A stretch of DNA of 64,000 nucleotides from the NCBI GenBank assembly GCA_947648495.1, contig CANSOA010000009.1, positions 5,397 through 69,396 of the forward strand, given 5' to 3'. Positions 8,128 through 47,274 of this stretch are shown piece by piece. Every line of letters begins with the position of its first letter. The stretch's first letter is position 1. Source of the DNA: an uncultured Clostridium sp. Lineage in GTDB: Bacteria > Bacillota > Clostridia > TANB77 > CAG-508. Both the position numbers and the translations under genes were made by a program. Under the pieces are notes generated by a model, which saw only the letters and a list, made by a program, of their open reading frames with translations, made no database searches and was not told the origin of the DNA.

Positions 8128-8156
8128 TTGACATTTTATGTAAAATATGATAAAAT
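8128..8156 (+). promoter_or_regulatory. member 1 of a conserved promoter family (TTGACA-TTTTATGTAAAATATGA-TAAAAT)
   Basis: Its 17-nt spacer is identical or near-identical to those of four other promoters in the window. Confidence 0.6.
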
Positions 8157-8207
8157 AAATAATAAGAAGCATGTTGCTTTATTATAATTTTGCAGGAGGA
8201 TGATAAT

Positions 8208-8855
8208 ATGATGAAGGTGTTTGAGGAAAAAGACGTAAAGAAAATGCAACTCCAACTTTCTGATGGACGGCTGATGCCTTTGGAAGACTTACTTGAGGAT
8301 TACGAAAGACTTCTGAAGGAAAAAACTCCCCAAAATAAGCTGGAGGTCGGCAAATGGTTTCTCATTAACAGAGATGTTATTGAGAAAAACCAAGAGAAAA
8401 TCCGTCGCGTGTGCGGTGAAGAAAGAGATTCTAAAGGAAGACTATATCGGGAGAGATTTGGAGAATCGAATGAAATCGCTAATGCGGAGCCTGAGAGATA
8501 TCCTCGCCGAATTTGGACTTTTGTCTTCAAGAAGAACTGGAAGTATAAGAAAGAACAGAAAATGCGAAATATGTGTAAAAAGAAAGGAGACGGAATGTGT
8601 GATGAAGTAATCTGTGATTTAGAGTTGCAAATGAGAATTTGTAATGGGGAATCTGCAGAGGATTTATTCAAAAAAGCCGATAAACTTCCACGTGTAAGAG
8701 TTATACAACTTAGAGACGGTGGAACTGGCTATTTTGGTGGCGGTGCTGATTACAATTACAATGCTCCGCCCGCAGACCTTTGCGGGTACGGTTTCGATCC
8801 TGATTACGAGCACTACGGAGGCACGCCATATGCGTTCCGTCGAGAGCTTTCGTAG
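8208..8855 (+). CDS. hypothetical protein (GC-richer than its surroundings)
   Basis: RBS GCAGGAGGA 7 nt before the ATG at 8208. No domain recognised. It contains two in-frame CGG codons, and an alternative-frame ORF overlaps it at 8374-8610. Confidence 0.45.
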   Translation: MMKVFEEKDVKKMQLQLSDGRLMPLEDLLEDYERLLKEKTPQNKLEVGKWFLINRDVIEKNQEKIRRVCGEERDSKGRLYRERFGESNEIANAEPERYPRRIWTFVFKKNWKYKKEQKMRNMCKKKGDGMCDEVICDLELQMRICNGESAEDLFKKADKLPRVRVIQLRDGGTGYFGGGADYNYNAPPADLCGYGFDPDYEHYGGTPYAFRRELS

Positions 8856-8998
8856 CACTGAACACTGTTTTCATTATTTAAATGGAGACAAAACTAAATT
8901 TAAGGGGAGTAATTTCCCCTTAAGTTATTTAAAAAGAAAGCTATCAAATCAAGTAGATAAGTTACAACTTTCTCATATACTATAAAGAGGTGAGAAAG

Positions 8999-9520
8999 TT
9001 GTGTTGCAATAAAAAATGGAATGGATATTATTTTGCTATTAGTATTGGTTTGATTTTTATATTGTTAATTTTGAATTTTAGTTTAACAATTGTTGCACCG
9101 AATAATTATCCTACGCATATCAATAGTTTTAATTATGCACCAGAAAGAGTAGAAAATGGAGGATATATTACGTTTGATACCAATAGAATTGTAGAAAAAA
9201 ATGATATAACACATCAAGAAGGAAGTTCAGATTTTGTTATTAATCAAGATGGAAATTATTATATTGGGTTTAATACAACGATTTATGAGCCACCATCAAC
9301 AGGGAAAGAAACAACTTTGTCTGTTTGTTTAGAGCATAATAATGCAACTGTATATGGTACAACAGTTGGTGAAACAGTTGCAAATGCTTATCAAACAGTT
9401 AATTTGAGTTTTGAAGTAATAGTTAAAGCGAAGCGAGGAGATATTTTAAGGGTAAAAAATAATTCTGGAACAGTGGTGGAATTATTACAACCTAATATAA
9501 ATATGATAAGAGCAAAATAA
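8999..9520 (+). CDS. hypothetical membrane-anchored/secreted protein
   Basis: An N-terminal hydrophobic segment followed by a polar domain. The start is uncertain (TTG 8999 or GTG 8990). Confidence 0.45.
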   Translation: MCCNKKWNGYYFAISIGLIFILLILNFSLTIVAPNNYPTHINSFNYAPERVENGGYITFDTNRIVEKNDITHQEGSSDFVINQDGNYYIGFNTTIYEPPSTGKETTLSVCLEHNNATVYGTTVGETVANAYQTVNLSFEVIVKAKRGDILRVKNNSGTVVELLQPNINMIRAK

Positions 9521-9597
9521 AAGATAAAAAGATAGATATTTATTGAAAATATCTATCTTTTGTGTTATAATTATTTTCAAAAGTATATAAAAAATAA

Positions 9598-10161
9598 ATG
9601 AAGGAAGACGATATGAAAAAGAAAAGTATTTTTTGGATGGTGGGCATTTTGATTTTAATTGTTATTGTGGGCATTATAACAAATTATGCAGACAGTGCAA
9701 ATCTGACAACTGGACATGAGCCATCTTACTGTATCAAGCGAATCAGTAAAAATGGAGATAAAGTAACTTATTGGGGATTAGGCTACAAAGTCATTCGATA
9801 TGTCAGTGTATCTCCTCATGAGCCATACGAACAAAATATTGGAGTAAAAATGGGCAGTTGGTTTATGAAATATGAATTGCCTAACCCCAAAATAGTCCAG
9901 ATACAATATAATGGAACGACTATGCAAATAACAAATCATAAAGATATTTCAGTCTTAGAAAATATTTTAGTAAATTCAAAATACGATTCGGGAATATGTG
10001 ATGGAATTGCTACATATACAATAACAATTGATAATCAAACATATTCTATAAAACAAAGTTGCAAAGAAATTCAAAAAGACGATAAACAAGCCCCTGTGAC
10101 AGAAGAAGATTTAAACACAATTTTGAAAATAATAGAGAGAAATCAATCAGATGAGTTATAA
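9598..10161 (+). CDS. hypothetical secreted protein with N-terminal signal/anchor
   Basis: The MKKKSIFWMVGILILIVIVGIIT signal-anchor. The start is ATG 9598 or 9612. Confidence 0.5.
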   Translation: MKEDDMKKKSIFWMVGILILIVIVGIITNYADSANLTTGHEPSYCIKRISKNGDKVTYWGLGYKVIRYVSVSPHEPYEQNIGVKMGSWFMKYELPNPKIVQIQYNGTTMQITNHKDISVLENILVNSKYDSGICDGIATYTITIDNQTYSIKQSCKEIQKDDKQAPVTEEDLNTILKIIERNQSDEL

Positions 10162-10258
10162 TATTTTATCTGTATAAAAATCAAAAACAAGCACAACTTA
10201 AAATAGAAAATCATATAATACAGTGAGCAAATAAAATTTTATTTTAAGGATGATGAAA

Positions 10259-45490: not shown

Positions 45491-45596
45491 GAAGAAAGCA
45501 AAAATTTTTCTAGCATATTTCGTATCAAAAAATGCAAAATAAAATTATAAAGTTTTAAAAACTTTGTATGACAAAACAACTTTTAGGAGGTTAAAA

Positions 45597-46010
45597 ATGG
45601 CAAAGAAAATATTCATTTCTTTTGCTATGATAATCCTATGTCTTTGTTGTTCAGTTTGTTTTGCAGCCCAAGAAAATTCAAATGTAAATTTAGGAGAAGA
45701 AATTACTGACTCCTTAGATAAAACAGGAGATAGTGTACGAAATGTAGCAGATGATGTCATGAATGGTGTCAATGGAAACACAAGAAATGATCGAAATAAC
45801 GATAAGAATAACAATAACAATACACGAAACAATCATATGGATAACAATGTATTTACAAACGGATATAATGCAGTTAGAACATCTGTAGATGATGTAGCAA
45901 CAGGAAACATGTCTACGACAACATGGATTTGGATTATTTTAGCAGTCGCAGCTATTATCATTGTAGCAATGGTTTGGTATTATGCGGTACAAGATAATAA
46001 TCGAGACTAA
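45597..46010 (+). CDS. hypothetical secreted/membrane protein (Asn-rich, N-terminal signal and C-terminal TM)
   Basis: RBS TAGGAGG before the ATG at 45597. MAKKIFISFAMIILCLCCSVCFA signal. An intrinsic terminator follows at 46019-46046. Confidence 0.55.
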   Translation: MAKKIFISFAMIILCLCCSVCFAAQENSNVNLGEEITDSLDKTGDSVRNVADDVMNGVNGNTRNDRNNDKNNNNNTRNNHMDNNVFTNGYNAVRTSVDDVATGNMSTTTWIWIILAVAAIIIVAMVWYYAVQDNNRD

Positions 46011-46059
46011 CCAATACAAAAAATCACTAAATTTTTAGTGATTTTTTGTGTTTGAAAAA

Positions 46060-46105
46060 AGAAAACCCGCCCCGAAGAAATTTAGGTTCTTGTGGGGTGG
46101 GTAAA
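46060..46105 (-). terminator. intrinsic terminator downstream of the SAS-domain gene
   Basis: A long imperfect hairpin (CCCGCCCC...GGGGTGGG) followed by a T-run on the minus strand. Confidence 0.5.
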
Positions 46106-46107
46106 TT

Positions 46108-47181
46108 TTAAGAAAAGATAGATGCCAGAAATTCCATGTCTGCAAAATCCTTCAGTTCAGATGGAGTTGTAGGAATTTCTTCTTTTGGTGTAAAACACCA
46201 GACACGATTTGGAAGTGCTATTTCTTTTAGAAAGCCAATATGTTCATTTGAAGAAAGTTTTTCACCAGATATTTCATACAAAAAAGTTTTCAAAAATTTT
46301 TGCAAAATCGTATCCTTATAATTTTTATGAGCGGAACTTCCATTTTCTGCATTGTCATGCATGCGAAATGTCCGAACTTGTATTTCAGTTAGCATTTCGA
46401 GAATTTCTACCCGAAAATGGAAAGACTGGTATTTATTTGCTTTAGGATTTTTGATGTAATCTTTACTTTCCAGAATGTCAAAACCTCTTTCATTGAAGAA
46501 ACTTTTTGAAAAAGGAACAAAATCGTAGATAAACGCAATCAAGTCTTCTTCCAAAATGGAGGTGTTATAAGAATTTACAATAATTCGATAACCACTTAAA
46601 TCGCGAATTGGATTATCCATTTTATTTTTTTCAATTAATTTTTCAAGATACTTTTTTGCTTCTGTTAGTTCTTCTGGTTGGAATTGCCAGTATTTTGTGT
46701 TCAAAATAGCTTCTGCATTTTCCAGAAGTTCTAGCAGAATTTCTGATGTGGCGATTTTTGTTCTTAACTTACATTCGAAACTGCGAAAAGATTTTAATCT
46801 GCCAACAGTTTTGCAAATTAAATAATCATATTTTTCTTGAGCTTTATCTTCAAGTTTTTCAAAACATGTATCGACAAACTTCTGATTTTTTTTGTTTGTA
46901 TACACATTCAAATAGGAAATCAGACGATTAGCATGCTTCATGTCATTTGGATTATGCGTATAAATGTAGCCAGATTTTAACATTTCAGCATATGTCCGTA
47001 CAATACATGGAATAGAAGAATGATGTTCAACTGCATACTTCAGATATTGATTTTTGTAATATTTTTTGTTGCATGTTTTCTTTATTTTTTTCTTTAGTTT
47101 TATTGTAAAAATAAAATCAATAACATCCGCTATTTGTTCTGGTGTTAGTAAGTAAGTTTTGTTGTTTTCAATGTTTGACAT
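46108..47181 (-). CDS. RelA/SpoT-homologue small-alarmone-synthetase-domain protein (toxSAS-like) with an unknown ~190-aa N-terminal domain
   Basis: C-terminal half: IRDLSGYRIIVNSY ... DYIKNPKANKYQSFHFRVEI ... EIQVRTFRMHDNAENGSSAHKNYKD, the (p)ppGpp-synthetase nucleotidyltransferase signature. It is driven by conserved-promoter member 5. Confidence 0.65.
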   Translation of the reverse strand: MSNIENNKTYLLTPEQIADVIDFIFTIKLKKKIKKTCNKKYYKNQYLKYAVEHHSSIPCIVRTYAEMLKSGYIYTHNPNDMKHANRLISYLNVYTNKKNQKFVDTCFEKLEDKAQEKYDYLICKTVGRLKSFRSFECKLRTKIATSEILLELLENAEAILNTKYWQFQPEELTEAKKYLEKLIEKNKMDNPIRDLSGYRIIVNSYNTSILEEDLIAFIYDFVPFSKSFFNERGFDILESKDYIKNPKANKYQSFHFRVEILEMLTEIQVRTFRMHDNAENGSSAHKNYKDTILQKFLKTFLYEISGEKLSSNEHIGFLKEIALPNRVWCFTPKEEIPTTPSELKDFADMEFLASIFS

Positions 47182-47245
47182 AATTATCCCTTCTGCCCTA
47201 ATTGGGCACCTTTCTTTATTTTTTCAATGTACTTTTCTTATTTCT

Positions 47246-47274
47246 ATTATATAATATTTTACATAATTTGTCAA
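47246..47274 (-). promoter_or_regulatory. member 5 of the conserved promoter family (TTGACA-AATTATGTAAAATATTA-TATAAT)
   Basis: Read on the minus strand. Confidence 0.6.

Follow-up and report, generated by a model that had tools for sequence, protein, structure and literature searches.

A stretch of 64,000 nucleotides from an uncultured Clostridium sp. (contig CANSOA010000009.1; the window) carries five members of a promoter family in which a word of the spacer between the −35 and −10 hexamers is conserved. The family occurs throughout a clade of low-GC gut Clostridia, it can be told apart from the other promoters of these genomes, its word is under purifying selection, and the genes behind it are compositionally foreign and turn over fast. 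With a probability of roughly 0.4, we propose that a sequence-specific factor, most simply a repressor, binds a short pseudo-dyad (TTA-TG-TAA) in the spacer of what would be a very strong promoter. An earlier note on this DNA (the original prediction) had described the five promoters as a local regulon. They are as follows:

8128-8156, + strand: family promoter 1, TTGACATTTTATGTAAAATATGATAAAAT; 11 of 12 hexamer matches, TG present
13901-13929, − strand: family promoter 2, TTGACATTTTATGTAAAATATGATACAAT
31563-31591, − strand: family promoter 3, TTGACTTTTTATGTAAAATATGGTATAAT
32493-32521, − strand: family promoter 4, TTGACTTTTTATGTAAAATATTGTATAAT
47246-47274, − strand: family promoter 5, TTGACAAATTATGTAAAATATTATATAAT; 12 of 12 hexamer matches

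The common reading of the five sites is TTGAC(A/T)-WW-TTATGTAAAATAT-NN-TA(N)AAT. When the window was searched with the pattern TTGACWTTTTATGTAAAATATKRTAHAAT, exactly these five sites matched, at the positions and on the strands first proposed, and no match was obtained in 100 dinucleotide-preserving shuffles. Four sites had no mismatch; member 5 had two, AA standing for TT, just as had been noted. It had also been claimed that fifteen or more spacer positions are identical across all five sites. This holds for four of them (15 positions); in all five sites, 13 positions (TTATGTAAAATAT) are invariant. The window sites are bimodal, with five perfect ones and then none below 4 mismatches. All five were the top-scoring sigma-70-type calls of their regions, with 11–12 of 12 hexamer matches, a 17-nt spacer and TATG or TTG before the −10, as sigma-A promoters should have (TTGACA, TATAAT, 17 ± 1 nt), and each lies 45–66 nt upstream of an open reading frame (ORF) preceded by a ribosome-binding site (RBS).

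When ± 150–200 nt around the sites (about 380 nt per site) were aligned, the likeness started at the T of TTGAC and stopped one base past the −10. Because the likeness is confined to this hexamer-bounded stretch, the five sites are not copies of a longer repeat. The other consensus promoters of the window (at 7186 before sigH, at 11462 before topB, and at 632) lack the word; for sigH and topB, this agrees with the original prediction.

One genome per species (185,579 species) was scanned with the pattern TTGACNNNTTATGTAAAATATNNTANAAT. At least 121 perfect sites were obtained, in at least 117 stretches from about 65 assemblies. Nearly all came from metagenome-assembled genomes (MAGs) of uncultured low-GC gut Clostridia, and one from Clostridium sp. 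CAG:465. Among the matches listed, 17 assemblies had 2 to 8 or more copies. In place of the local regulon of five members there is thus a lineage-wide family of at least 126 perfect copies, with degenerate variants in addition. About 1.1 Mb of clade sequence contained, apart from the seed sites, 13 perfect sites and 33 with 1–3 word mismatches, against a background that peaks at 7–8 mismatches; the family is degenerate yet consensus-rich. In a profile of 126 unique sites, there was no conservation beyond the 29 nt except for a weak T-A/G signal 6–7 nt after the −10, as expected for a transcription start. The spacer was 17 nt in all perfect members, and leaders to RBS-preceded ORFs were 17–100 nt in most of the 126 sites. 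A longer repeat or mobile element, including a promoter borne by a miniature inverted-repeat transposable element, an insertion sequence or a repetitive extragenic palindrome, was rejected, since the flanks are unconserved on both sides across the 126 sites.

In 2.9 million viral contigs only 3 matches were found, all single-copy. Early or middle promoters of phages would be abundant in phages, with several copies in each, and this was not seen. A phage origin was rejected on account of these few viral matches and of a cargo without PHROG matches.

A metagenome scan with the central dinucleotide left free gave 49 matches for AT-only centres, 23 for TG and 3–5 for each other centre, so that TG was about 6-fold over-represented relative to equivalent centres. 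The matches spanned very diverse metagenomes (22–52% GC), and TTGAC-NNN-TTA-NN-TAAAATAT-NN-TANAAT with AT-only centres was common in unrelated AT-rich contigs (L129–L248). In huge databases, ordinary consensus promoters rich in AT form a background of matches due to composition, and some of the matches of the genome scan that are single-copy may be chance relatives. The multi-copy genomes, with up to 8 or more copies against about 0.001 expected, cannot be explained by chance. Single-hit genomes show a cargo signature equal to that of the multi-copy genomes.

For comparison, 208 other gene-associated promoters of the form TTGAC-N17-TANAAT were taken from the same genomes. Their positions 18–21 read T, R, T, G, and positions 6–17 showed only a weak T-then-A trend, with no preference at the central ATGT and with G at the word's G position in 10%. 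Positions 18–21 we take to be the Firmicute −16 TRTG element, which is read by RNA polymerase. Since the last three bases (TAT) of the conserved stretch are generic, the part to be explained is about 10 nt, TTATGTAAAA, centred near −24. Hence, of the 15–17 nt that had been called conserved, about 10 nt are specific to the family, and the 3′ part (TAT, then G) is ordinary TRTG; the G of the TG element is present in 82 of 126 family sites. The comparison also supports the earlier view that the promoters with this spacer form a subset of their own; in these genomes, the spacer is not shared by sigma-A promoters at large.

Two series of orthologues bear on selection. Four orthologous RelA/SpoT-type loci (in the window, L030, L078 and L117) adjoin the same 480-aa oxidoreductase; in these, the word and the hexamers are invariant, and the N positions, the upstream intergenic DNA and the 5′-untranslated region (5′-UTR) have diverged. 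The second series is independent of the motif, being made up of homologues of the 215-aa protein behind promoter 1, taken from a protein search. Their promoters have 0, 0, 1, 1 and 2–3 word mismatches, down to 63% protein identity; orthologues at ≤59% identity have a conventional promoter, TTGCAA-N17-TAAAAT, on a homologous 5′-UTR. Since the free N positions drift and the 13 word positions are fixed in orthologues, selection acts on the word itself, and it is purifying at every position. The spacer is therefore constrained in a sequence-specific manner, as had been proposed.

Of the occurrences of the exact word, 127 were in register with the hexamers and 2 were not, where chance alone predicts about 0.9; out-of-register words with one mismatch were near chance level. 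Within 80 nt upstream of the sites, 9 extra copies of TTATGTAAA were observed, in both orientations, against about 0.8 expected, and shifts of the word by ± 1 occur. In clade variants, no word position varies more than the first T of the internal TAAAAT, and several times CA stands in place of the central TG. TTA-TG-TAA is a pseudo-palindrome, and its conservation is roughly symmetric, with variants in the clade that have a CA centre. The word is selected, missing from other promoters and tied to register; therefore, it must have a reader that acts within the promoter context.

The cargo has a key trait that the original prediction did not mention: it is compositionally foreign, it turns over fast, and it is replaced at syntenic slots. 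The first ORFs behind 122 sites form 102 clusters and have a median length of 135 aa. A transmembrane-like segment is present in 29 of the 122, and a terminator-like hairpin lies within 140 nt in 62 of 106 testable ORFs. The cargo is mostly short, monocistronic and mutually unrelated. Its GC content exceeds that of long ORFs of the same locus by 4.3 points (79 of 106 higher, p=1.6e-10). Other short RBS-bearing genes lie 1.3 points below the long ORFs, and the cargo is about 6 points above these short genes (p=7e-7). The shift persists in multi-copy genomes.

At the slot downstream of topB (13425-13929 in the window; L002, L083, L113), the family promoter is kept and the small genes differ. At the slot of the RelA/SpoT-type gene (46108-47274 in the window; L030, L059, L078, L117), the cargo proteins are 34% identical with partial coverage, and the flanking proteins 72–88%. 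Arrays of units stand between core operons, namely between jag and mnmE (L031/L015, with rnpA-yidC-jag on one side, then the arrays, then mnmE) and between an adhE-like gene and gatCAB (L109). Some of the arrayed units share one orientation, each being a self-contained set of promoter, gene and terminator. No recombinase-like ORF was seen beside the arrays by inspection of the ORF maps, the ORFs not having been scanned against a family library. A recombinase or integron model was rejected, the arrays lying inside housekeeping clusters without recombinase-like neighbours. Integron-type cassettes would carry an attC-like recombination site at their ends, with an integrase nearby; the cargo ends showed no conserved 3′ element beyond ordinary terminators.

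Among recurrent cargo are stand-alone Spo0A C-terminal domains (PF08769, E=9e-39), and all seven stand-alone Spo0A_C genes of the sample are behind family promoters. Such proteins, of 145–180 aa and with no receiver domain, were noted in L033, L069, L095, L109 (2165-3865, three tandem paralogues) and L114. Their recognition helix hardly differs from that of canonical Spo0A, so that they could be phosphorylation-independent mimics or competitors of the latter. Further recurrent cargo comprises patatin-like, LemA, BspA-type leucine-rich-repeat, cytidylyltransferase-like and RelA/SpoT-type proteins.

In the reading that we favour, the family would be a lineage-wide class of composite promoters, in which a near-consensus sigma-A promoter (TTGACA, 17 nt, TRTG, TATAAT) is combined with the spacer word TTATGTAAAA, and the reader would be a DNA-binding factor conserved in this group of Clostridia. 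As the hexamers, the spacing and the TG element are near ideal, the bare promoter should be very strong; as a site between the −35 and the −10 is best placed to occlude RNA polymerase, the factor would most likely be a repressor. The attached genes would be kept off until some signal, and the module would act as a common on/off handle for acquired accessory genes. We infer all three of its parts, i.e., a reader other than RNA polymerase, repression, and co-regulation of the genes. The family-driven genes would then make up a regulon. The upstream TTATGTAAA copies, the ± 1 shifts and a variation of the word unlike that of a −10 hexamer hint at a reader separate from the polymerase. The variable first T and the changes of TG to CA appear less suited to a second −10 element than to a short dyad, TTA-YR-TAA, of which they are suggestive.

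This reading resembles known regulons with an operator in the spacer, in which a conserved word outside the elements of the polymerase sits in the spacer of strong promoters of many unlinked units and is under purifying selection. The family differs from them in that its word is almost never outside the exact register, perfect copies dominate, and the genes are not a coherent set but more than 100 unrelated, foreign and quickly replaced orphans over dozens of species. MerR-type promoters are another matter, having a 19–20-nt spacer with a dyad operator, against 17 nt here.

Several points speak against a repressor. No candidate reader was found when the Spo0A_C paralogues and CodY were examined. 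The sole recurrent DNA-binding cargo, Spo0A_C, has a canonical-like helix, and the corresponding box, TGTCGAA, is not in the promoter. The strict register is unusual for a classical repressor, and it fits co-recognition by the polymerase at least as well; operators of classical repressors are normally at varied positions. The dyad is weakly backed: the flip from TG to CA, suggestive in the clade, is unsupported as proof by the free-centre metagenome scan, where CA (5 matches) was not above AC, GA or CT (3–5 each). Moreover, perfect copies are unusually dominant for the regulon of a transcription factor. The original prediction had the spacer read by a protein or a specialised sigma factor; the reading of the word does best explain the selection, and neither a protein nor a specialised sigma was identified.

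Two candidate readers were rejected. For the Spo0A_C proteins, the recognition helix is canonical and the 29-mer has no 0A box: its TGTAAAA agrees with that box in 5 of 7 positions, without the CG core, so that the 29-mer is not a Spo0A promoter by this measure. A link to the Spo0A-dependent spoIIG was also rejected, as the gene driven by the variant that lies near a sporulation sigma gene encodes an orphan membrane protein and adjoins spoIIA. It may be noted that in L070 (6852-7013) two family promoters, one perfect and one with a CA centre, stand back to back about 105 nt apart, each driving a small orphan gene, and that this pair adjoins the spoIIA (SpoIIAB-SigF) operon. CodY was the second candidate. 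Its box in low-GC Gram-positive bacteria is AATTTTCWGAAAATT, and its targets are metabolic genes. Box and word alike overlap promoters and are AT-rich and dyad-like, with TTTT/AAAA arms; the CodY regulon is very large. CodY was rejected because the best alignment had 4 mismatches in 15, with the arms offset by 1 bp, and because the (small) sample showed no CodY gene.

It is also conceivable, though somewhat unlikely, that the whole 29-mer is read as one unit by RNA polymerase, a dedicated sigma factor or a polymerase-bound cofactor, in which case the family would be a promoter class and not a repressor regulon. The early promoters of phage T4, with their extended consensus, and the near-invariant promoters of single-subunit polymerases would be parallels. 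The strict register (127 in, 2 out, with one-mismatch words out of register at chance) and the predominance of perfect copies are as such a mechanism would have them. At 24 of 29 positions, the family consensus has the majority base of general promoters, its 3′ end being generic TRTG, and the word is similar to an extended −10 region of the lineage itself, TTATGTTAAAAT, seen where distant orthologues have conventional promoters. In published primers, a B. subtilis promoter fragment ends, on its 3′ side, with the same 13-mer. In addition, SigA of three motif-rich MAGs has a Lys-rich N-terminal extension of 100–150 aa, which might be a candidate reader of the spacer; this is an anecdotal observation from four sequences in all (n=4). 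The extended proteins are encoded in L025 (3764-5110), L048 (1275-2603) and L082 (5654-7150), and the one without the extension in L122 (18437-19561), a locus from a genome without family sites. We take the B. subtilis fragment to be P43 and the 13-mer to be its −10 region.

Against recognition of the 29-mer as one unit, the word is missing from housekeeping consensus promoters of these genomes, of which only 10% have G at the key position, and the bases from −29 to −20 are not read by the known sigma-70 contacts. The upstream auxiliary copies would stay unexplained. No extra sigma gene is consistently linked, the sigma genes near sites being those of SigA and SigF. If the word were a second −10 element, its TG would be off register by one base; no position varies more than its first T, and the CA variants lose the TG. 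A second −10 in the spacer, which TRTG+TAAAAT resembles, was on these grounds rejected as the sole explanation.

A broader proposal, which we regard as unlikely, is that the word would be a lineage-wide control handle for acquired genes, read either by a regulator or by a spacer-sensing feature of the polymerase. New genes would then persist only once coupled to the module, and for this reason unrelated cargo at one slot would keep the same promoter. The purpose would be like that of xenogeneic silencing, with the difference that here an exact 10-nt word is placed inside a consensus promoter.

We consider it quite improbable that there is no dedicated reader and that the 29-mer is the standard expression module of a mobile gene pool, copied with its cargo or onto it. 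Such hitch-hiking agrees with the foreign composition of the cargo and with the self-contained units, some of them in same-orientation arrays between housekeeping operons. It also agrees with the 215-aa family, whose promoter, hairpin and gene travel together, being tRNA-adjacent, in sets of type IV secretion system and ArdA genes, or beside a diversity-generating retroelement (DGR). 'Putative mobile promoters' common to unrelated genes are documented, being defined as segments of 50–100 nt that are at least 80% identical (Matus-Garcia et al. 2012, PMC3488235). They are like the family in that a near-identical promoter precedes non-homologous genes within and between genomes; the family does not fall under their definition, being 29 nt long, with unrelated flanks, and kept by selection rather than by recent copying. 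Further evidence against hitch-hiking is that the likeness stops at the hexamers, so that the sites do not share a vehicle sequence, inverted repeats or flanks like att, and that no integrase or transposase was seen beside the arrays on the ORF maps. Viral contigs gave only the 3 matches mentioned, and in 20 kb of conjugative-element genes there was one family site. A stretch of 29 nt is also too short for known copy mechanisms. In ordinary promoters the bases of the spacer drift; here the N positions do so, and yet the 13 word positions are fixed in orthologues. Hitch-hiking explains the movement of units, but it does not explain a fixed word beside drifting free positions.

Phage morons are autonomous units of promoter, gene and terminator that carry small, fast-evolving orphans, and T4 early promoters have a consensus that extends beyond the hexamers. 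The family is like them in unit layout, orphan cargo and extended consensus, but its units are chromosomal, lie between housekeeping operons and occur in many species, with the 3 viral matches given above.

A compositional accident, by which AT-rich genomes with consensus promoters would yield similar spacers, is very improbable and is effectively refuted for the window and the multi-copy genomes: the free-centre pattern is indeed common across metagenomes, with more AT-only centres than TG (49 against 23), and the motif is partly generic (TRTG, T-rich then A-rich), but five perfect 29-mers in 64 kb compare with zero in shuffles, the copies per genome and the TG centre far exceed expectation, the word is conserved in orthologues, and the single-hit genomes have the same foreign-GC cargo signature.

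In the literature, no discussion of this promoter motif was found; the 13-mer appeared only in the cloning primers and in an irrelevant C. difficile cloning junction. The family is a natural case of base-specific selection on a promoter spacer, which is usually deemed free to vary, and it raises the evolutionary question of the route by which more than 100 unrelated foreign genes came to share one exact promoter. If a single reader exists, that factor would control a large share of the accessory and orphan genes in abundant uncultured gut bacteria, among them genes for DGR variable proteins, alarmone-synthetase-like proteins and free Spo0A DNA-binding domains, and the word would be a ready computational marker for this gene pool. 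The 29-mer is, moreover, a candidate part, as a strong or switchable promoter, for Clostridia that are genetically intractable.

The genes behind the five window promoters, followed by other genes of the window and a possible sixth site, are given below:

8208-8855, + strand: cargo 1, 215-aa protein, 42% GC, homologue of DGR variable (target) proteins; no Pfam match, 271 homologues
13466-13834, − strand: cargo 2, 122-aa orphan, convergent with topB; no family match, terminator at 13425-13456
30841-31517, − strand: cargo 3, bicistronic pair of paralogues, 74 aa (31293-31517) and 141 aa (30841-31266); no family match
32265-32426, − strand: cargo 4, 53-aa hydrophobic peptide, followed by a hairpin terminator
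46108-47181, − strand: cargo 5, 357-aa divergent RelA/SpoT synthetase-domain protein (PF04607, E=4e-19)
7254-7895: SigH gene
11516-13417: topB
52636-53436: full-length Spo0A gene
49663-49691, + strand: possible degenerate sixth member with the word shifted by +1, TTGACAAATTTATGTAAATGTGATAAAAT; membership uncertain

The downstream genes had all been called unannotatable. Cargo 2 and 3 indeed have no family match; the 215-aa protein, by contrast, belongs to a DGR target family, and stand-alone Spo0A_C is recurrent cargo elsewhere. Other earlier descriptions stand. The first cargo gene is GC-rich (42% against 32% for the window; 216 aa had been given for its product, which has 215 aa here), the tandem pair are paralogues (BLASTP E=2e-11), and the 357-aa protein does carry the RelA_SpoT domain. 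The latter otherwise gave weak matches only, to the synthetase domains of long RelA/SpoT homologues, and a weak match to the candidate defence family PDC-S33. A defence-island theme was rejected, as it would hang on that single weak PADLOC match.

Promoter 1 lies directly 3′ of a tRNA gene and its terminator (8045-8068), and cargo 1 is followed by a terminator-like hairpin at 8900-8923. In two loci, L124 (10001-12271) and L126 (2929-5233), the gene of the 215-aa family is followed by bAvd and a reverse transcriptase. There, the 3′ end of the gene matches a downstream template repeat, and 16 of 16 and 17 of 19 substitutions, respectively, fall at template adenines. On these sequence features, the 215-aa protein family (271 members) is a DGR target. 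In the window, neither a template repeat nor a reverse transcriptase was found within the 64 kb, and the window copy would therefore be an orphan or a remote target. Genes of the family are also found among conjugative-transfer genes (L125, L127); as the contexts differ, the promoter, the 5′-UTR hairpin and the gene move together. The hairpin, at about 8166-8178 in the window, is common to the DGR-target family (L121–L128) and shows compensatory changes, AAGCA-tgt-TGCTT in the window and AAGTA-ttt-TACTT in relatives. This suggests a putative conserved RNA element between the promoter and the RBS of this family.

Some smaller ORFs adjoin the family units. Just 3′ of the DGR-type gene is a 176-aa ORF (8990-9520, + strand) with a weak, sub-threshold match to the C-terminal domain of BclA (exosporium). 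Two ORFs without a family promoter lie between the two family units near 32 kb: one (31719-31844, − strand) encodes a 41-aa Gly/Cys-rich membrane peptide, MPENRGCGCGCGFGFGG...CCCCGG..., and the other (32040-32177, + strand) a 45-aa rubredoxin-like protein.

The shifted relative at 49663-49691 stands 40 nt upstream of a 71-aa orphan ORF (49731-49946) without family match. A near-copy of the word, TTATGTAAAATTT followed by ATACAAT and without a −35 element, was noted at 596-608 (+ strand). It directly follows a terminator and precedes the consensus promoter at 632 by about 25 nt, and it may be a family member that has decayed.

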